Shown: in pieces, positions 4,715 to 15,503 of the stretch
How positions within the stretch are numbered: position 1 is the stretch's first letter
How the letters are laid out: every line of letters begins with the position of its first letter
IMG/VR virus record: IMGVR_UViG_3300037400_004297
Coordinates: 1 to 64,000 of that record
DNA length: 64,000 nt
Source of the DNA: a virus
Taxonomy: Duplodnaviria > Caudoviricetes
Direction: 5' to 3' (one strand)
The notes under the pieces: model-generated
Seen by the model: the letters and a program-made list of their open reading frames with translations, nothing else
The model's database searches: none
Told to the model about the DNA's origin: nothing
Translations under genes and position numbers: made by a program

Positions 4715-5884
4715 ATGAAGCAGCCAATAAAAAAAAGAATAGCCACAGCAAATGGAATAGATACTGAAAAGCAAGTCTATACACTAATTGTGGATGGCAA
4801 TAACCTACTTAAAATGTCATCTGTTGATAAGAGAATGAATAATAATGGAGAGGAATATGGCGCAGTCCTCGTTTTTATAAGAAAGCTTGGTGAGGTGCTG
4901 CTGAAAAAAGATTTTGACTATTGCATAGTATCATGGGATGGAACTGGCTCAGGAGTAATGAGATATAGGGTTTATCCAGAATATAAAGCAAACCGTGATA
5001 AACACTATGAATTAATCGAAGGTAAAACAGATTATGACAAATATATAGAGAATTACGCTAAGAAGATACTTCAAAACAGAAGAAAGAAAGAAACAGTAAG
5101 GAAAGAGACCGATGATGAATCATTCAAAAGGCAGAAAGATATCATTCAGGATATTCTGGAAGAACTCTGTATAAGACAATATGAATTTGATGATGTTGAG
5201 GGTGATGATATAGTAGCTTACTATGTTAAACACAAAAACCCTAAGGAAAGGGTTGTTATAATGTCATCAGACAGGGATATGACTCAGCTAATATCCGATA
5301 CTGTCATAATATGGAATCCCAGGGATAAGAAGTTTATAACTGCTGACAATTCTATAAAAGAGCTTGGAATAACGCACGAGAATATCGTTCTTGAGAAGAT
5401 GCTTTGTGGTGATGTATCAGACAACATAAAAGGGGTTAAGGGGCTTGGTGAACAAACGCTTATTAAGTATTTCCCAGAAATTGTTGGTAACAAAATAGAT
5501 ATTAACGTCATAATAAAACGTTCAAAAGAGATTCTAGAGGAAAGGAAACAAAATAAGAAACCTCCACTGAAAGTGCTTAATAACATAATAGATGGTGTTA
5601 CAGAAGGTTGTCAGGGGGACAAATTGTATGAGATTAACAAGCAAATAATAGACTTATCAGAGCCACTTATAACAGACGAAGCTAGTGAATATCTTAGAGA
5701 ACGTTTGTATGCCCCTATAGATACAGACGAAAGGAGTGCTAAGAACGCTTATAAGATAATAGAGAATAATGGAATGTACGACTTGCTGGATGAAAAGAAA
5801 TTCGGTGATATTCTTGCCCCTTATAGCCGTATTATATTAATGGAGGGTAGAAGATATGCTAAATATCAAGCAGAGAGTAAATGA
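4715..5884 (+). CDS. 5'-3' exonuclease / flap endonuclease (PolI N-terminal or T4 RNase H-like)
   Basis: LIVDGNN, SWDG, YPEYKANR, EGDDIVA, SSDRDMTQL, GDVSDNIKGVKGLGE motifs. Confidence 0.92.
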   Translation: MKQPIKKRIATANGIDTEKQVYTLIVDGNNLLKMSSVDKRMNNNGEEYGAVLVFIRKLGEVLLKKDFDYCIVSWDGTGSGVMRYRVYPEYKANRDKHYELIEGKTDYDKYIENYAKKILQNRRKKETVRKETDDESFKRQKDIIQDILEELCIRQYEFDDVEGDDIVAYYVKHKNPKERVVIMSSDRDMTQLISDTVIIWNPRDKKFITADNSIKELGITHENIVLEKMLCGDVSDNIKGVKGLGEQTLIKYFPEIVGNKIDINVIIKRSKEILEERKQNKKPPLKVLNNIIDGVTEGCQGDKLYEINKQIIDLSEPLITDEASEYLRERLYAPIDTDERSAKNAYKIIENNGMYDLLDEKKFGDILAPYSRIILMEGRRYAKYQAESK

Positions 5885-7235: not shown

Positions 7236-8387
7236 ATGGTTTTAACAGAAGATATGAAATCACTGTTCCGCACAGTGAGAACACTACTTGGTGCTCCTAT
7301 TAGAATTGTTCAATTGGAGGATGAACAGCTTTGTGACCTTCTCGATGTTGCTATAGGTGACTACTCAGAGAAGGTACAGAACTGGGTTCTTGAGACCCAG
7401 TGGCTTAACATACAGAGCAAGGGACAGATACAGTTCCAGAACGCCAATGAGCTTGCGTATGCAATGACCGTTCGTACAATGGACTGGTCTCGTGACTATT
7501 CATACTGGTTCTCACGTGAGGTTGGACTACAACAGAGAGGTAATTATGAACTAAAGAAGGACTTCTTTCAGGTTGAAAGGGGCAAGCAAGTTTATGTCAT
7601 TCCAGCAGGAAGGGAGATAAATAAGGTAATGTATGTAACTCCATCAACCACAAAGGCAGCACTCTACGGAAACCTTGGCACTCTTGATACTGGTATTGGC
7701 GGTGGATTCGGACAATACGGTAACATGGGTAACGGTATGGGTCTTACAGGATTCTATGTTGGTTCAGCATATGATACTGCACTTATGGCAGCAGACCTTA
7801 AGTATAAAAACTCACTTCTCAGGGGTGATTTAGCTTATAAGGTGACAGCAGGACCTAATGGAACACACCTTGTACACCTTATGTCAACTCCTGGCTCTCC
7901 AAATATGGTTGGCGGTGTATCTGCCGATGATACCTGGGGATGGAATAGGTATGCAAGCTGTTATGTGTGGTATACCTATTATGATGTATCTGGTTCAGAT
8001 GATGCAGCAGACCTTTGCATGCTTGAGAACAAGGATGATGTGATAATCACACCAGACCAAGTTCCATTGGATAAAATGAAGTATGAACTGATGAACAATC
8101 CTACACAACAAATTATAAGAAGGCTATTGGTTGCAGAGGCTAAGATATTGCTTGGTATTATAAGAGGTACGTATAGCGGTACTGTGAAGATACCTGATGC
8201 GGAAATGCAGATGGATTATAATATGCTTCTTGACCAAGGAAAGAGTGAAAAGGAGACAGTGCTTAATGAGTTGAAGGAGAGGCTTGAGAGGATGTTACCT
8301 TGGAATCTGATTAAGAACCAGGTGGACATGAATGATAGTCTCATAAAGGTATTGAAGAATAAGCCACTTGGATTGTTTGTGAGATAA
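7236..8387 (+). CDS. Putative neck protein (T4 gp13-like)
   Basis: LGAPIRIVQLEDEQL..L..A N-terminus and AEAKILLGIIRG...MDYNMLLDQG C-terminus, typical of large-myovirus neck proteins. Confidence 0.7.
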   Translation: MVLTEDMKSLFRTVRTLLGAPIRIVQLEDEQLCDLLDVAIGDYSEKVQNWVLETQWLNIQSKGQIQFQNANELAYAMTVRTMDWSRDYSYWFSREVGLQQRGNYELKKDFFQVERGKQVYVIPAGREINKVMYVTPSTTKAALYGNLGTLDTGIGGGFGQYGNMGNGMGLTGFYVGSAYDTALMAADLKYKNSLLRGDLAYKVTAGPNGTHLVHLMSTPGSPNMVGGVSADDTWGWNRYASCYVWYTYYDVSGSDDAADLCMLENKDDVIITPDQVPLDKMKYELMNNPTQQIIRRLLVAEAKILLGIIRGTYSGTVKIPDAEMQMDYNMLLDQGKSEKETVLNELKERLERMLPWNLIKNQVDMNDSLIKVLKNKPLGLFVR

Positions 8388-9283
8388 TGAAAGTAGATAA
8401 TAAACTTGTAGAGAGTGTTGTTAGAGAGGTAATATTGGAATATGGCGGGGTATCAGACGAAATACTGAATCTCGCAAATAAGATATTTTCTGAAATAACA
8501 TCTGATTATAATGGTTACATGTACGACTGGAGACCTGTGGATTATTACATGGGGCTTGATGGTTGTGACCTTGTGAAAAGAATGCCATTACAGTTTGATA
8601 ATAATGAATATGTTGATGAGGTAAATATACGACTTTTTGGATATTATTCAAGGAAGACAAATTTCAATGAAGCTTTGAATTATCTTAAATCAAAGGGACT
8701 TGCTGGAGTATCTTATTCTTACAGTAGAAAAATGGTTAAACTTTTTATACCTTATCCAACAGATGGCAACTTACCTGATGATGTTAAGACGTGGCTTATA
8801 TCTAGTCTAAACCACGAAATAAAACATGGGCTACAGTTTGTAAAACAGTCACATGCTTTAGGCAAGAAAGGTAGACAGTATGCATTCGACAAAAATTATG
8901 ATGCGTCTGTATCTGACACTAACCAAAGTGAATTTGGTGATGATACAGGTACTGCTGAATGGATAAAGCGTTGCTACTATACATTGTGCTATGATGAAAT
9001 AGATGCAAGGTTGCAGTCTTTATATGTGGAATATTCTAAATATGGTGATTTAAATAAGTGTGAATCGTATAAGGATGTTAGATATGCCACACAAATGTAT
9101 CAAATGCTGTTAATGACAATGATAAAGCCAGAGCTTAGTAAGAGATTTGATTATCTTGTTAGGAAGATTTTTGATAACAGATTGAATGCAAAATCTTTCC
9201 TTAAACTTTGCCAGAGAGGTGTAAACAGGTTTAATGAACACATGAGAAGGATAGTTGGAAGGGTTAATATTGAGAGAAAATAA
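8387..9283 (+). CDS. Hypothetical protein with HExxH motif (possible Zn metallopeptidase)
   Basis: LNHEIKHG plus downstream DEIDARL glutamate. Confidence 0.5.
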   Translation: MKVDNKLVESVVREVILEYGGVSDEILNLANKIFSEITSDYNGYMYDWRPVDYYMGLDGCDLVKRMPLQFDNNEYVDEVNIRLFGYYSRKTNFNEALNYLKSKGLAGVSYSYSRKMVKLFIPYPTDGNLPDDVKTWLISSLNHEIKHGLQFVKQSHALGKKGRQYAFDKNYDASVSDTNQSEFGDDTGTAEWIKRCYYTLCYDEIDARLQSLYVEYSKYGDLNKCESYKDVRYATQMYQMLLMTMIKPELSKRFDYLVRKIFDNRLNAKSFLKLCQRGVNRFNEHMRRIVGRVNIERK

Positions 9284-9328
9284 TCGGGATAAATCTTGTT
9301 TATCTCGATTTTTTTATATATCTTTGCA
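9282..9328 (+). promoter_or_regulatory. Terminator hairpin fused to Bacteroidota promoter
   Basis: aatcgggataaa-tcttg-tttatctcgatt hairpin, T-tract, then TATCTTTG. Confidence 0.75.
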
Positions 9329-9349
9329 TATATTAATATTTTTTAACAT

Positions 9350-10789
9350 ATGAGTGAGAATTTAACAAATGGTAAATTTTTAGAGAATCTATATAAGCGA
9401 TTTCCAGATATTAAGTATGATTTTTCAGAAGCCGAATATATTGATAGTAAAACGCACATGAAAGTTATATGTCACGAAAAAGATTGTAATGGTATTGAGC
9501 ATGGAAGCTGGATGATAAGGCCATACAATCTGTATAGTGGATATGGATGTCCTAAATGTGCAGCCGAAAAACATAGACAGGAACGTAGAATGCCATATGA
9601 ACAGTATTGCAAGTTAGTATCAGAAAAGTATGGTGACGTATATGAAGTGGATAAAACATCTTACGAAGATAAGTTCAATAGATTAAAAATATTGTGTAAG
9701 AAGCATAATAAATATTTTGAAACGAATAGCAGGTTATTCCCAAGATTTAATTCACATAAATGTCCTGATTGTATTAAGGAAGATTTGGAGTGTAGTGGTG
9801 TAGATAGCAGTTTATCTACTGCGAATGACATCAATAGTTTTGATGATGAAGTGTGGGTTGATATACCAGGCTTTGAAGGAAAATATCAATGCAGTTCTGA
9901 AGGAAGATTTAGAAGAATAAATAGAAAGAATAGAGTTGGTAATAAAATTAGCGATTTAATTCTTAAAGTTAATTTTACAAGGAGAGCTGGTCAGATATCT
10001 CTAGACGGTAAAACCTATGTTGCTCATAGAATCATATATGAAACATTTCATAAAGTTAATCTAATAAGTGGATACACTTCTACAATAGACCATATAGATA
10101 ATAATGTTAGGAACAACAGAATTTCAAATTTGAGACTTGGTGGCACTATAAGTGAGAATATGTTAAATAACAAGCTTACTATTGCTAGACTATCAGCAAG
10201 AGGTGGGGCTGTTGGTATTTCACCTATATTTGATTTTGAAAAATTGGAAGGGGAAAAATGGGTTGATATAATAGGTTATGAAGATTCTTATATGGTTTCT
10301 AATTTTGGTAGGGTTGTAGCAAAAGATAGAACTCTTGTTGAAAAAAACACTGGTAAGAAGAGACTTAAGAAAGGACATCTAATGCGTCAAGCAATTAAAT
10401 ATGGACAATATTATACAGTTGGGCTTGTAGATGGTAATAGAATACGTAAGACACATTATACTCATAGATTGGTTTATGAAAGCTTTAATGGTAGAATAAA
10501 AGAAGGAAACCAAGTAGACCATATAGATTCCAATTCGTTAAACAATAGATTGGATAATCTTAGAGAAACAAGTCCTTTAGAAAATGTTAGAAATCCTAAT
10601 TCTTTATCTAAAAGAACTATACAAGTTAGGAAAGTGAATTTGCTTGGTGAAACATTGGCTATTTATGATTCTATTAAAGAAGCTGGCATAAAAAATAATA
10701 TTAAACCTGGATTAATTTCAAGATGGCTTAATGAAAATAATAGGCAGAAAAATAATAAGTTGAGGGGGTTTTATTTAATTAAAGTATAA
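9350..10789 (+). CDS. HNH homing endonuclease with tandem NUMOD4-HNH units and N-terminal Zn-binding repeats
   Basis: Two NUMOD4 motifs (WVDIPGFEGKY, WVDIIGYEDSY), two HNH motifs (DHIDNNVRNNRISNL, DHIDSNSLNNRLDNL), GCPKC and CPDC. Confidence 0.85.
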   Translation: MSENLTNGKFLENLYKRFPDIKYDFSEAEYIDSKTHMKVICHEKDCNGIEHGSWMIRPYNLYSGYGCPKCAAEKHRQERRMPYEQYCKLVSEKYGDVYEVDKTSYEDKFNRLKILCKKHNKYFETNSRLFPRFNSHKCPDCIKEDLECSGVDSSLSTANDINSFDDEVWVDIPGFEGKYQCSSEGRFRRINRKNRVGNKISDLILKVNFTRRAGQISLDGKTYVAHRIIYETFHKVNLISGYTSTIDHIDNNVRNNRISNLRLGGTISENMLNNKLTIARLSARGGAVGISPIFDFEKLEGEKWVDIIGYEDSYMVSNFGRVVAKDRTLVEKNTGKKRLKKGHLMRQAIKYGQYYTVGLVDGNRIRKTHYTHRLVYESFNGRIKEGNQVDHIDSNSLNNRLDNLRETSPLENVRNPNSLSKRTIQVRKVNLLGETLAIYDSIKEAGIKNNIKPGLISRWLNENNRQKNNKLRGFYLIKV

Positions 10790-10906
10790 ATAATATAAAC
10801 ATGGGATAAGTTATATTATTCAAAGAAGGAAATGTTAAATGATATAAAACATTATTCATATTTTAAGAATCTGGAGGAAATGTTGTGTGAGGCTAGCACT
10901 AAATAA

Positions 10907-10962
10907 TGTTAAATAATCGGGGTAATGTTTGGTTATCTCGATTTTTTTATGTATCTTTGCAC
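10907..10962 (+). repeat. 56-bp direct repeat copy A (terminator-promoter cassette) left of the IscB module
   Basis: 53/56 identical to 12729-12784; contains tttg (10928-10931) and TATCTTTG (10952-10959). Confidence 0.9.
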
Positions 10963-10963
10963 C

Positions 10964-11140
10964 AACTAATCTGGTATGATTAGCTTAAGCCCTTCGAGGG
11001 CTACGTTGAGGGAGAATATATAGGCACTTTGGAGTTGTTACCCAAGCCCCAAACCATGCGGCTAGCGAGAATGTCTTTCTAGTGAAAACCTCCAACCAAC
11101 ATTAGCGATGGGTACACAACGTCATTTATTTGACGGTTTA
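10964..11140 (+). ncRNA. IscB omegaRNA scaffold lacking a cis guide; tracrRNA-like, with 5' anti-repeat at 10964-10980
   Basis: OmegaRNA-like motifs TAGCTTAAG-[agccct-tcg-agggct]-CTACGTT, GAATATATAGGCAC, AACC..AACATTAGCGATGGGT; possible pseudoknot tacccA/tgggta; 3' hairpin cgtca-tttatt-tgacg. The first 17 nt are complementary to the array repeat. Confidence 0.85.
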
Positions 11141-11162
11141 CAACATTTTTAAATTAAAAGCA

Positions 11163-12437
11163 ATGGTTTATGTATTAAACAAGGATGGCAAACCCATAAT
11201 GCCAACGACAAGACACGGAAAAGTTAGGAGGCTTTTGAAGGAAGGGAAAGCCCACGTGGTTTCTACCGTTCCTTTTACAATCCAGCTTGACTATATTTCT
11301 GGTGAGAACCTACAAGAAATAAATCTTGGGGTTGACACTGGTTCTAGGTACATAGGCTTGTCTGCATCTACATCTTCTAAGGAGCTTTATGCTGCGCAGG
11401 TAGAACTTCGTAGTAAAGAGATTCCAGACCTTATTCTTTCTAGGCGTGAGTCTAGAAGAACTAGACGCAACAGAAAAACTAGGTACAGAAAGCCACGTTT
11501 TGATAATAGGAAAAGACCAAATGGCTGGTTAACTCCTACATCAAGAAACAGATTTGATGAACATATGAAAGCTATTCAGCGTGTCTATAAAATTCTACCT
11601 GTTTCTAACATAACCATTGAGATTGCTCCGTTTGATATCCAGAAACTAAAGAATCCAGGGATTCAAGGTGAAGAGTACCAACATGGTGAGTTGTTTGGTT
11701 TTGAAAACGCCAGAGAATACGCTTTAATTAGGGATAGGCACGAGTGCCAGCATTGTCACGGTAAAAGTGGATGCAAAACACTTCACGTACACCATATTCA
11801 ATACAGGTCACAAGGCGGTACTGATGCAGTTGGAAATCTTATCACATTGTGTGAGGATTGCCATAATAAACTACATAATGGTGAATTTGAACTTAACTTA
11901 AAAAAGATTACTAGCTTCAAAAACCAAACATCAGTATCGACAATCGGTAAACCTGTGTTCTGGAAGGCAAAGGAACTGTATGGTAATGTTAAGACTACGT
12001 ATGGCTACATAACCAAAACTAACCGCTTAAGGGGTGGAATTGAGAAGTCCCATACTAGTGATGCATTTGTTATGGCTGGCAACTTGAATGCTGACAGGTT
12101 TGGTGGATTCTACCAGTATAAGCTTAACAGAAGACATACTAGGTCTCTACATAAGCAACTTCCAAAGAAAGGTGGCATACGAGCAGCAACCACTGCCACC
12201 CATACAATAGGTAATAGTGGCTTGCAGAAGGGAGATTTGGTTCTCTGGAATGGGATGAAGTGCTTTATTAGTGGAAGCTCACATAATAGGCTATACTTGA
12301 AAGATATTAATGGTAATCTTCTGACAAGAAAACAAAATGATAACGGTAAGATGATATCTTTTACTGTAAGAACTGCTGATGTGAAATTCCTAAGAAGGAT
12401 GCACGGGAGTCATTTGCTCCAGTTTACTCGTGAATAA
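11163..12437 (+). CDS. iscB: IscB RNA-guided endonuclease (PLMP/RRXRR, split RuvC, bridge helix, HNH)
   Basis: MVYVLNKDGKPIMP; RuvC-I LGVDTGS; RRESRRTRRNRKTRYRKPRFDNR; RuvC-II ITIEIAPFD; HNH CQHC..HVHHI..GGTD..NLITLCEDCHNKLH; RuvC-III KSHTSDA. Start placed at ATG 11163 (424 aa). Confidence 0.95.
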   Translation: MVYVLNKDGKPIMPTTRHGKVRRLLKEGKAHVVSTVPFTIQLDYISGENLQEINLGVDTGSRYIGLSASTSSKELYAAQVELRSKEIPDLILSRRESRRTRRNRKTRYRKPRFDNRKRPNGWLTPTSRNRFDEHMKAIQRVYKILPVSNITIEIAPFDIQKLKNPGIQGEEYQHGELFGFENAREYALIRDRHECQHCHGKSGCKTLHVHHIQYRSQGGTDAVGNLITLCEDCHNKLHNGEFELNLKKITSFKNQTSVSTIGKPVFWKAKELYGNVKTTYGYITKTNRLRGGIEKSHTSDAFVMAGNLNADRFGGFYQYKLNRRHTRSLHKQLPKKGGIRAATTATHTIGNSGLQKGDLVLWNGMKCFISGSSHNRLYLKDINGNLLTRKQNDNGKMISFTVRTADVKFLRRMHGSHLLQFTRE

Positions 12438-12488
12438 GAGATAAGTGGAGTTTTTAATCATTTCGTCGATTCTTTGTTCAAAATATGC

Positions 12489-12722
12489 ATTGTATCAGAT
12501 TAGTTTTTAATATTATTAGATTTCTGGAATCGGTATTTATCGTAGACTTACCCACCCTTTATATATAATGATGAGTCAGGTTCTGAATGATTAATTGTAT
12601 CAGATTAGTTTTTTATATTATTAGATTTCTGGAAAAAGAGATATATCAATAATAACGCTGCCAATTGTATCAGATTAGTTTTTTATACCAGAACACACAT
12701 ATGAAATTGTATCAGATTAGTT
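12489..12722 (+). CRISPR. Degenerate CRISPR-like mini-array, 4 repeats with core ATTGTATCAGATTAGTT
   Basis: R1 12489-12529 and R2 12594-12634 (41 bp, 1 mismatch), R3 12664-12687 (24 bp), R4 12706-12722 (17 bp). Unique intervening sequences of 64, 29 and 18 nt. Confidence 0.8.
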
Positions 12723-12728
12723 AATTTT

Positions 12729-12784
12729 TGTTAAATAATCGAGGTAATGTTTGGTTATCTCGATTTTTTTATGTAATTTTGCAC
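12729..12784 (+). repeat. 56-bp direct repeat copy B (terminator for IscB/array, promoter for the next cassette)
   Basis: aatcgaggtaa-tgtttgg-ttatctcgatt hairpin + T7 + TAATTTTG; 53/56 identical to 10907-10962. Confidence 0.9.
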
Positions 12785-12799
12785 TCGAAATAATAAAAT

Positions 12800-13075
12800 G
12801 TGTACGTTATGACAAGAGAACAAGCTAAACAGATTCTTCTCAAGAGCATTGAGAAGGAGATAAAAAAATATGGTGAGGATACTGTCGCAGTGATGTCACC
12901 TATGCCAGGCAAGAACTTCTGGACATATAAAGAGTATAAGGATGCTGTTATTAATGACACTGACCTTGATGGCTGTGAGGATTCTAATCCTATCGATTCT
13001 CTTATCAGGTATGATGAATATCGTTTGGAGCGTGGCATGGAGAGTATGGTTGATAAGTTTTTAAAGGAGAAGTAA
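12800..13075 (+). CDS. Hypothetical protein
   Basis: 91-aa ORF directly after the promoter cassette. Confidence 0.6.
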   Translation: MYVMTREQAKQILLKSIEKEIKKYGEDTVAVMSPMPGKNFWTYKEYKDAVINDTDLDGCEDSNPIDSLIRYDEYRLERGMESMVDKFLKEK

Positions 13076-13076
13076 T

Positions 13077-13379
13077 ATGAGTAATTTGATGATTCTAATT
13101 CTAGTATGGGTAGTAGGCATTATTATTACCTTATTCATTCTCTATAAACAAAATGATAAGATAACACTTAGCGATGCACTATTGGTGCTGTTCTTCTGGT
13201 GGTTTTATTTAATATTCTTCATCAGTATGTGGTTGACCGTATGTGTTGAATGGATTTATGATAACACCAGGGACATAGTATTATTTGAGAAGAAGAAAGC
13301 CCCAAGGTGTAACAAGAAAACAAAGTTCCAGGAAACTATGGATAAACTGGAGAAACAAGTTGAAAATTTTAAAAAGTAA
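13077..13379 (+). CDS. Hypothetical membrane protein
   Basis: Two hydrophobic segments followed by a basic C-terminus. Confidence 0.6.
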   Translation: MSNLMILILVWVVGIIITLFILYKQNDKITLSDALLVLFFWWFYLIFFISMWLTVCVEWIYDNTRDIVLFEKKKAPRCNKKTKFQETMDKLEKQVENFKK

Positions 13380-13398
13380 CATTATAACATTTTAAACA

Positions 13399-15435
13399 AT
13401 GAAAAAGCTTTTATGGATTATGTGTGCAATGCTGGTCGGTATGTCAGCATATGCAAGTGAGACTAACGACACCATTATTAACAAGTCACTTGACGAGTTT
13501 ACGGTAACGTCGTTCTATCGTAGTTCCACCCCAATTCTGGGTAGCACTTTGAATTCACAGTCATTGATTTCTGCAAACTATGGTCAAGAGCCTTCTTGGC
13601 TGTTAGCAAACATGCCTTCCATCTTTGCATTCAGTGACAATGGTACTGATTTCGGTTATGGCTATTTCCGTATTCGTGGACTTGACCAGACTAGAATAAA
13701 TGTAACTCTTGATGGAATGCCTTGGAATGAGGCTGAGGATTTTGGCTGTTATTTCGCTAATAGCCCTGATATTTTAGCAGACGCTGGCAGTGTTGAAGTT
13801 GGACGTGGTACAAGCACCTATAACCCTGGTACTGCATCGTATGGTGGAAGTGTAAACATTAACTCTGTTGACCTCAAAAAGGACACTGAATCATATGCAA
13901 TGTTTGGTGGTGGTAGTTTTGCATCATTTAAGACATCTGTCAATATTAATACAGGTCTTATGGGTAAGTGGGCTATGCATGTACGTGCAACAATGTCAGA
14001 AACTGATGGCTATCGTGAGCATAGTTCAAATAAATCTAAGTCACTTGGCTTTAAGCTTGGTTATTTCATTAATGATAAGAGTTCAATTGACCTGCTGTCA
14101 ATCACTGGATATCACAAGAACGGACAGGGATATATTGGTGGCACAATGGAGGAGCTTGCGAAGAATCGTAAGATGAATGGCTGTAGTGAATATGAGGACG
14201 ATAATTTCTTCCAGACGGTAAATAAGCTTACCTATAATAGTTGGTTTGGTGATAAGGTATTGTTTACATCTTCATTGTATTGGAGTATGCTTCGTGGAGA
14301 GTATCGTTTTGATTTAGACAATTATCTGTTGCGAATGGAGGATTTTCCAGCGCAAACTGGCATGGTGTATAACTATGGGCTTATTCACCACAGCTATGGT
14401 GGTAATGCAGCAGCACGTTATTACATCAACGACGGCTCAATTACATTAGGTACTAACATCTATAAGTTCGAGCGTGAGCATTATCTTGATGACCGTAATG
14501 TTGATAAGGCTAAGAATATCACACCTGCTGACTACTATGACAATCGTGGACATAAGATGAGCTATGAGGCATTCATTAATGCGAAGAAGTCATTTGGCAA
14601 TTTCACACTGTCTGCTAATGTTCAATATCGTGGTGTTAAGTTCTGGTATGTTGACCTTATGAATCCATTAGTTAACTTTGATGAGAATACAACTTGGAAC
14701 TTCATTAATTTTGGTGCTGATGCAAGTTATAAGATTGGAAGTCATAATGAGTTATATCTGAAGTACGCACGTGCTCACCGTGAACCGACACGTACAGATA
14801 TGTTTGGTGGAAATGAATGGTATGTTGGTTCACTTACAACAACAGATGCTGAGGTTTCAAATGATATTGAATTTGGTTGGAATATTGCTGCAAAGAAGAT
14901 TAATGCTAATGTAAACCTGTTTGGAATGTTCTTTGAGAACGAGCGTTCACTTACTGGTACACTTGGTTTAAACGGTCTTCCTGAGCATGAGAAGGCTGAT
15001 AACAGTCATCGTATGGGTATTGAGTTATTCGTTGATTATGAGCCTTTTAGTAAGTTCCATATCGTTAATAACTCGTCTTTCTCTAATAATAAGGTAAAGA
15101 CTGAGACCTATGGAACTAAAAGTCATGTATTAACTCCTAATTGTACGTTCAACCAGGCGTTTGAGTGGCGTGATAACAAGTGGAGTGCTGGGGTAGAGTG
15201 GAAATATCGTAGTCATATGTACATTGATATGGCAAATGAGTTCCGTGTCCCTGACCTGTGGCAGCTTAATCTCTATGGTAGTGTTACCCTTGGCAATTTC
15301 ATCGTCAGTGGGCATGTTAATAACATTACCAATCGTGACAATATGCAGACAGGTGTGCTAACCAATACCAACAAGGCACGTTTCATGCCTGATGCGCCAA
15401 CTAACGTGTTTGCTTCGGTGAAGTACATGTTCTAA
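13399..15435 (+). CDS. TonB-dependent outer-membrane receptor (Bacteroidota vitamin-uptake type)
   Basis: Signal peptide; LDEFTVTS TonB-box-like; plug motifs FRIRGLDQTRINVTLDGMP and GRGTS..G..GGSVNI; C-terminal NNITNR...PTNVFASVKYMF ending in aromatic F. Confidence 0.9.
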   Translation: MKKLLWIMCAMLVGMSAYASETNDTIINKSLDEFTVTSFYRSSTPILGSTLNSQSLISANYGQEPSWLLANMPSIFAFSDNGTDFGYGYFRIRGLDQTRINVTLDGMPWNEAEDFGCYFANSPDILADAGSVEVGRGTSTYNPGTASYGGSVNINSVDLKKDTESYAMFGGGSFASFKTSVNINTGLMGKWAMHVRATMSETDGYREHSSNKSKSLGFKLGYFINDKSSIDLLSITGYHKNGQGYIGGTMEELAKNRKMNGCSEYEDDNFFQTVNKLTYNSWFGDKVLFTSSLYWSMLRGEYRFDLDNYLLRMEDFPAQTGMVYNYGLIHHSYGGNAAARYYINDGSITLGTNIYKFEREHYLDDRNVDKAKNITPADYYDNRGHKMSYEAFINAKKSFGNFTLSANVQYRGVKFWYVDLMNPLVNFDENTTWNFINFGADASYKIGSHNELYLKYARAHREPTRTDMFGGNEWYVGSLTTTDAEVSNDIEFGWNIAAKKINANVNLFGMFFENERSLTGTLGLNGLPEHEKADNSHRMGIELFVDYEPFSKFHIVNNSSFSNNKVKTETYGTKSHVLTPNCTFNQAFEWRDNKWSAGVEWKYRSHMYIDMANEFRVPDLWQLNLYGSVTLGNFIVSGHVNNITNRDNMQTGVLTNTNKARFMPDAPTNVFASVKYMF

Positions 15436-15454
15436 TTGGTTAATAATAGTTAAA

Positions 15455-15503
15455 AAATGAGGTAATCGTTTGGTTATCTCATTTTTTTTATGTAAATTTG
15501 CAG
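15455..15503 (+). promoter_or_regulatory. Terminator-promoter cassette
   Basis: aatgaggtaa-tcgtttgg-ttatctcatt hairpin, T-tract, TAAATTTG. Confidence 0.75.

Follow-up and report, generated by a model that had tools for sequence, protein, structure and literature searches.

A CRISPR-like repeat array at a phage iscB locus that probably supplies guides to a two-part omegaRNA

In a 64,000-nt stretch of phage DNA (Duplodnaviria; Caudoviricetes; positions 1 to 64,000 of the IMG/VR record IMGVR_UViG_3300037400_004297), referred to here as the window, the gene of an IscB nuclease is followed by a short series of direct repeats that differ in length and share a 17-nt core. This arrangement raises the question of whether the repeats form an array that provides IscB with guides, and if so, how such guides could be joined to the omegaRNA. 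The iscB gene (11163–12437, + strand) encodes a 424-aa protein containing the PLMP, RuvC, bridge helix and HNH motifs. Pfam searches identified the RRXRR (2.1e-62) and HNH (1.5e-10) domains, and the OgeuIscB structures matched the protein with an E-value of 8e-57, the PLMP, RuvC and HNH motifs being aligned. The dN/dS values within the clade of its close relatives were 0.07–0.09, which indicates strong purifying selection. The gene proved to be single-copy, with one RRXRR match per record in G000 and G001, which are about one-third complete, and in G002, which is rated complete; no match to the Y1 transposase TnpA (PF01797) was obtained in these three records. In four of the six loci compared below, iscB is located between a T4 gp13-like gene and a TonB-receptor gene. 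This IscB has the appearance of a domesticated nuclease and not of an active insertion sequence. The record from which the window was taken is 76.6 kb long and rated 34% complete, thus the phage genome is probably well over 200 kb.

The surroundings of the cassette showed some further variation. The segment between the gp13-like gene and the IscB unit (8387–10789) contains two genes that are absent from this position in the related loci L081, L272 and L274: a 298-aa ORF without Pfam match and a gene for a 479-aa homing-endonuclease-like protein with NUMOD4 and HNH_3 domains. Their absence from the relatives suggests that a second mobile nuclease was inserted beside the cassette. On the other side, the gene of a TonB-dependent receptor with a Plug domain (13399–15435) adjoins the cassette, as it does in L081, L272 and L274, and no close relative of the receptor protein was found in the genome collection searched.

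The 17-nt core ATTGTATCAGATTAGTT occurs in four exact copies on the + strand, starting at 12489, 12594, 12664 and 12706. Repeats 1 (12489–12529, core 12489–12505) and 2 (12594–12634, core 12594–12610) are 41 nt long and differ by one mismatch, repeat 3 (12664–12687, core 12664–12680) has 24 nt in common with them, and the terminal repeat 4 (12706–12722) is exactly the 17-nt core; it is also the point from which the sequence is again homologous to L081. They enclose spacers of 64 nt (spacer 2, 12530–12593), 29 nt (spacer 3, 12635–12663) and 18 nt (spacer 4, 12688–12705), all on the + strand. Thus, the repeat and spacer lengths given by an earlier interpretation made without database searches (the sequence-only reading), whose definition of spacers is kept here, were confirmed. 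The stretch between the iscB stop codon and repeat 1 (12438–12488, + strand) is a leader or a first spacer, the last ~16 nt of which could be a first guide; given that its counterpart in L081 and L272 is only 13–14 nt long, this stretch may be a leader and not an acquired spacer. With up to three mismatches allowed, the core was found five times in the 64-kb window against 0.67 expected, and none of 100 shuffles reached this number; the sole match besides the four repeats is a reverse complement at 10964–10980. Tandem Repeats Finder reported no repeat in the 12300–12900 region, in keeping with the expectation of the sequence-only reading that standard finders would overlook the array. A −7-like box (TAGATTTC/G or TAGTTTTG) is present 3′ of some repeats only, and the idea of promoters located within the repeats, in the style of type II-C systems, is speculation.

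The array forms the 3′-end of a single unit composed of a terminator, a −7 box, the omegaRNA scaffold, iscB, the array and a second terminator. A terminator scan located an intrinsic terminator hairpin followed by a T-run at 10915–10943 (+ strand), which ends the upstream transcription unit, and another intrinsic terminator at 12737–12765 (+ strand), which ends the omegaRNA-iscB-array unit. The −7 consensus of Bacteroides promoters is TAnnTTTG, and a box of this Bacteroidota type, TATCTTTG, lies at 10952–10959 on the + strand. As predicted from this consensus box, transcription would start approximately 4–7 nt 3′ of it, at the segment complementary to the repeat core. The next −7 box after the array terminator is at 12774–12781. 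The combination of a terminator hairpin, a T-run and a TAnnTTTG promoter recurs between genes of the window (9276–9328, 10907–10962, 12729–12784 and 15433–15502). It is also present in the related phages and marks the ends of segments exchanged between them. The 56-nt near-identical direct repeats flanking the unit were considered as ends of a mobile element and rejected, as they are copies of this general terminator-promoter cassette, which occurs at least four times in the window.

The reverse complement of the core at 10964–10980 (+ strand) constitutes a 17-nt anti-repeat at the predicted 5′-end of a tracr-like omegaRNA. It is preceded by the −7 box at a distance of 4 nt, reaches precisely to the TAGCTTAAG junction and occupies the position held in canonical omegaRNAs by the 3′ strand of the guide-adaptor hairpin. 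The omegaRNA (HEARO) scaffold itself was detected at 10969–11120 (+ strand) by Rfam model RF02033 with 52.5 bits (E 7e-9), a score that does not reach the gathering score of 83, as both the first hairpin and an inner stem are shortened. HEARO RNAs normally have a first stem that encloses approximately 46 nt in the Rfam alignment, while the window has 3 bp with a 6-nt loop at this place. Since the anti-repeat is 4 nt from the −7 box and abuts the TAGCTTAAG junction, the predicted scaffold retains only the 3′ strand of the guide-adaptor hairpin and has no room for a cis guide. Canonical phage relatives show the order guide, cis hairpin and TAGCCTAAG, as seen in the canonical ones among about 20 loci whose upstream sequence was inspected, out of 110 with the junction motif. 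Seven of the canonical loci were scored against HEARO and gave 86–140 bits, and none of the 110 loci has an array. In L013, two tRNA genes are located directly 3′ of a canonical phage IscB (4284–4515).

The core and the anti-repeat can pair along their entire length (17/17 positions, 14 Watson–Crick and 3 G-U pairs) with a predicted energy of −17.7 kcal/mol. None of 2000 shuffled cores formed an equally stable duplex (mean −3.65, best −14.8 kcal/mol), and the duplex was retained in three loci when a guide-plus-core RNA was cofolded with the scaffold. The part of the repeats that does not change is therefore exactly the segment pairing with the 5′-end of the omegaRNA, which bears out the link between the array and the IscB locus proposed in the sequence-only reading. 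In the OgeuIscB structure, a 14-bp guide adaptor hairpin joins the guide to the nexus, and the authors equated this hairpin with the repeat:anti-repeat duplex of Cas9 (PMC9640706). As the core would supply the missing 5′ strand of the hairpin, the sequence just 5′ of each core would come into the guide position.

Six distinct loci of this type, including the window, were collected from IMG/VR, JGI, ENA and Logan, and bovine rumen samples were the source of several. According to protein searches, their IscB proteins form a tight clade with 79–100% identity, and the next relatives show at most 56%. The five related phage lineages share the layout of the window with 3–10 downstream repeats: four in the window, five in L271, seven in L081 (= L001 = L082), three in L002, nine in L272 (= L273) and ten in L274 (to L277). 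All six loci follow the same plan, in which the box TATCTTTG is followed after 3–7 nt by the anti-repeat, then by the scaffold, iscB and the downstream array, and in all six the terminal repeat consists of the core only and leads into the terminator-promoter cassette. Among approximately 155 more distant IscB loci (45–56% identity), none had such an array. A further sequence, L278 (1609–1960), encodes the same IscB protein as L274 and diverges from it right after the first repeat, with a minus-strand gene where L274 has its ten repeats; either a variant that lacks the array or a break in the assembly could account for this.

Comparison of these loci revealed that only the core is conserved within the arrays and that it co-varies with the anti-repeat in the five related lineages. 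Five different core/anti-repeat pairs were found among the six loci, forming duplexes of 16–19 bp with own-pair energies of −13 to −22 kcal/mol, some of them with one bulge or mismatch. As synonymous divergence between the lineages is 0.6–1.8, the agreement between core and anti-repeat is maintained rather than passively inherited. All 43 copies (38 downstream and 5 upstream) lie on the omegaRNA strand, before a terminator. The distance between cores was irregular in every locus, ranging from 14 to 134 nt, so the irregular spacing noticed in the window, unlike that of arrays built by Cas1-Cas2, is a family trait, and no match to Cas1 (PF01867) was found in the record of the window and two relatives, one of which is a 412-kb record rated 100% complete. 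Given that the first spacers of L081 and L272 are just 13–14 nt long, not every unit need be a guide.

The same comparison bears on the proposal that the array erodes to the core. The 24-nt extension of the long repeats in the window contains TATTAGATTTCTG, and the same piece is present 3′ of some L272 repeats; for this reason, a repeat of ~40 nt is probably ancestral, of which the core alone would have been kept. Erosion to the core is thus a fair description, and a terminal repeat reduced exactly to the core, first noticed in the window, is found in every lineage. The graded shrinkage along the array did not hold as a general feature, because the relatives intersperse core-only and longer repeats. 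The suggestion that the 64-nt spacer represents two spacers with a lost repeat found no support: it contains no remnant of the core, it is identical in L271, and spacers of the relatives reach 134 nt. The proposed guide in this spacer is its 3′ ~16 nt.

The closest relative of the window provided a view of array turnover. L271 encodes the same IscB protein, and only 2 substitutions separate the two sequences in the ~1740 nt corresponding to 11057–12799, while L271 has one extra 49-nt core-plus-spacer unit between the third and fourth repeats of the window, aligning near repeat 3. Because one whole-unit indel stands against two substitutions, unit turnover appears to outpace the accumulation of point mutations; recombination between identical cores would be the simplest route. 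In the part 5′ of ~11056, L271 resembles L002, which places a recombination breakpoint inside the omegaRNA; in direct comparison, its anti-repeat differs from that of the window at four positions (three aligned substitutions and one gap column). Compared with the 10900–13400 region of the window, L271 is a mosaic, with an L002-like 5′ part of the omegaRNA and downstream genes that are 5–7% diverged. Since just 2 substitutions were found in the ~11057–12799 segment despite this divergence of the downstream genes, the IscB-array cassette seems to have been exchanged recently between phages.

In L271 (400–545, three units) and in L002 (2688–2760, two units), the 3′ region of the gene before the omegaRNA promoter harbours a second mini-array, which likewise pairs with the anti-repeat. 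The anti-repeat of L271 pairs perfectly with its upstream mini-array and more weakly with the downstream cores (−13.6 kcal/mol, one C-A mismatch). The window has no upstream array, and its anti-repeat fully matches the downstream cores. In the sequence-only reading, spacers identical across distant relatives would have spoken for a fixed structural RNA or a regulatory repeat; the array comparison showed that spacers differ between relatives, and none shared between lineages was found. Unalignable spacers alone do not prove turnover, given the high divergence between the lineages. In L274 (4492–4582), neighbouring spacer-plus-repeat units (families D4 and D5) are 74–84% alike over 43–45 nt, spacers included, which suggests that some units may arise by tandem duplication followed by divergence.

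We consider it likely, with a probability of roughly 75%, that the repeats form a CRISPR-like guide array lacking Cas1/Cas2 and serving the phage-borne IscB, whose omegaRNA is split into two RNAs. This reading is built on the anatomy of the locus, the pairing, the covariation, the unit indel, the selection acting on IscB and the lack of Cas1 and TnpA matches in the records searched. One promoter, represented by the −7 box at 10952–10959, would produce a transcript that starts with the 17-nt anti-repeat, runs through the omegaRNA scaffold and iscB, carries the array last and ends at the 12737–12765 terminator. Each array unit would consist of a guide followed by the 17-nt core, and the core and the anti-repeat, located on separate molecules, would together restore the guide-adaptor hairpin, which is formed in cis in canonical omegaRNAs. 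The ~16 nt immediately preceding the core would thereby enter the guide position of IscB, guide length and use being deduced from the geometry of the hairpin. As only the 3′-end of the spacer and the core would matter, the spacer length and the rest of the repeat would be free to vary or decay, and recombination between cores would lead to the gain or loss of units. RNA processing, DNA cleavage, the targets and the origin of new spacers are the steps of this scheme that we infer.

The complementarity between the two segments could also be explained in the opposite sense, with 10964–10980 being an ordinary cis guide joined to the nexus after deletion of the adaptor hairpin, and the repeats being its DNA targets in a cluster of cleavage or recombination sites around the cassette. 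The 17-nt length and the 5′ position of the segment would suit an IscB guide (PMC9640706), the polarity of the complementarity would be the same for an RNA:DNA hybrid, and in L002 and L271 copies occur on both sides of the locus. However, the side on which the TAM is expected (+ strand, immediately before the core) varies more than any other part of the units and has no common motif, and the 43 copies are without exception co-oriented with the omegaRNA and situated in transcribed 3′ regions before terminators. Moreover, the phage would target its own genome, the adaptor hairpin is kept in every canonical relative, and the core and the anti-repeat maintain a G-U-tolerant pairing, not the exact identity. 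Taken together, we regard this explanation as unlikely.

If the array provides guides, protospacers might be expected, and the sequence-only reading had proposed a search for targets with a shared flank. No target and no common flank was found for the guide segments in the databases searched: altogether 34 guides gave no protospacer in their own record, two related phage records, INPHARED, the collected loci and five exact-word scans of IMG/VR. The four spacers of the window had no match longer than 14 nt in their own 76.6-kb record, and the arrays of the window and L081 gave only chance-level matches in INPHARED (E at least 0.2). In the exact scans of IMG/VR, a 20-mer of spacer 3 had 0 matches and an 18-mer of spacer 4 had 1 match without extension; two L081 16-mers had 99 and 11 matches, of which only the self match extended past the word, and two L272 18-mers had 2 and 0 matches without extension. 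Against G000, G001 and G002 (599 kb in all), the 34 guides gave 4 one-mismatch matches, where 1.3 were expected from shuffled guides, and 16 two-mismatch matches, where 19.7 were expected, that is, no signal. Against all collected loci (2 Mb), the 34 guides gave self matches with the exception of one L274 guide (4854–4873), which has a 16/17-nt match in L062, L065, L067 and L069 (E 0.2 in 2 Mb). This match lies approximately 1–2 kb upstream of IscB in a different IscB-phage family and is the sole near-match outside the guide's own array. Homing was considered as well and rejected, since the 'empty-site' junction around the cassette contains no match to any guide. The null result of the target searches is weak, since single matches of ~16-nt guides in large collections are indistinguishable from chance.

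The empty target searches would be in accordance with decaying or purely regulatory repeats, such as the remnant of an old array or of an omegaRNA 5′-end, an RNA sponge, or an antisense element titrating the scaffold, in which the sequences between the cores have no guide function. Truncated repeats with irregular spacing, the absence of adaptation genes and the adjacent L274 units that look like diverged duplicates can be accounted for in the same way. On the other hand, strong purifying selection acts on IscB, and with an omegaRNA that lacks a cis guide, the nuclease needs guides from elsewhere. Furthermore, the cores are kept exact within each array and, between lineages with saturated synonymous sites, change in step with the anti-repeat, arrays of 3–10 units persist in every lineage and always end at a terminator, and a whole unit was inserted or deleted between nearly identical cassettes. 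For these reasons, decay or a purely regulatory role appears improbable as the explanation of the tract. Least probable is a true CRISPR array loaded by a host type II adaptation machinery, the phage repeat mimicking that of the host: an ancestral repeat of at least 41 nt would have a CRISPR-like length, but spacers of 14–134 nt do not resemble integrase-measured ones, the exact core gave 23 scattered single matches and never an array in a collection representing 185,579 prokaryote species by one genome each, which argues against mimicry of a host CRISPR repeat, and the Rfam CRISPR repeat match of the locus was at chance level (E 3.1).

In a broader and less certain form, for which the odds are in our judgement slightly better than even, the guide-array reading would mean that a family of large Bacteroidota-type rumen phages domesticated IscB and independently made a crRNA/tracrRNA split, with a separate promoter for the scaffold and guide-plus-core units placed in the 3′ untranslated end of iscB and, for some of the phages, in that of the upstream gene as well, the units being turned over by recombination without Cas1-Cas2. 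IscB is regarded as the ancestor of Cas9, and the transition from a one-piece omegaRNA to crRNA plus tracrRNA is an open question. This phage clade appears to show the split state in nature, as the scaffold begins at the anti-repeat and the guide units would need only a 16–17-nt core, and its arrays change by whole units without adaptation genes. With a 424-aa nuclease, a ~160-nt scaffold and ~33-nt crRNAs, the system is compact and could show how dual-RNA guiding and arrays arise, as well as what a phage does with a multi-guide nuclease. If the domestication and the split are true, the clade would offer a living model of how tracrRNA and adaptation-free arrays originated, and the system would be a programmable weapon aimed by the phage at competitors or host elements.

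It is known that IscB became associated with arrays several times independently (PMC10734277), and IscB/HEARO genes have been reported in viral contigs, where they were described as not CRISPR-associated (PMC9755519). In the literature covered, which is incomplete, no description turned up of a phage-borne IscB whose scaffold has a promoter of its own and whose array is downstream and core-only. The nearest known systems are the CRISPR-associated IscBs of Altae-Tran et al. 2021, as far as they are described in PMC12660989 and PMC10734277, an example of which is DelIscB. Both these and the phage system combine a small IscB nuclease, a HEARO/omegaRNA with an anti-repeat and a direct-repeat array, with no adaptation genes in the locus. 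In DelIscB, the one CRISPR-associated IscB that has been engineered, the array is upstream and belongs to the same non-coding RNA as the anti-repeat, and whether this RNA is split into two was stated to be unknown (PMC12660989). In contrast to this contiguous arrangement, the array of the window lies downstream of the ORF, approximately 1.5 kb from the scaffold, which has its own promoter at the anti-repeat, with a terminator and the promoter immediately before the anti-repeat; some relatives of the window also have an upstream array, which stands behind a terminator. The separate promoter of the scaffold and the distance of the array suggest pairing in trans or over a long range. The phage repeats trimmed to the 17-nt core, the irregular spacing and the large-phage carrier are further differences from CRISPR-associated IscBs.

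Canonical OMEGA IscBs (OgeuIscB; PDB 7XHT, 7UTN) have the protein family, the domain order and the scaffold from the nexus onward in common with the window. OgeuIscB uses a guide of ~16–17 nt (PMC9640706), whereas the window has neither a cis guide nor a guide-adaptor hairpin, TnpA was not found, and the gene is single-copy and syntenic, unlike the multi-copy insertion sequences of the IS200/IS605 type. Huge-phage mini-arrays and CRISPR systems are similar in having a short array in a large phage without adaptation genes, but they use standard Cas effectors or those of the host, while here IscB would act with its own tracr-like omegaRNA. Type II CRISPR-Cas9 systems, especially II-C and II-D, resemble the phage locus in the position of the guide 5′ of the repeat, in the pairing of the repeat with the anti-repeat at the 5′-end of the scaffold, and in the possible co-transcription of the array with the effector. 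They differ from it in that the phage effector is a 424-aa protein without a REC lobe, cas1, cas2 and csn2 are missing, the spacers are not of fixed length (14–134 nt), and the duplex is only 16–19 bp long.
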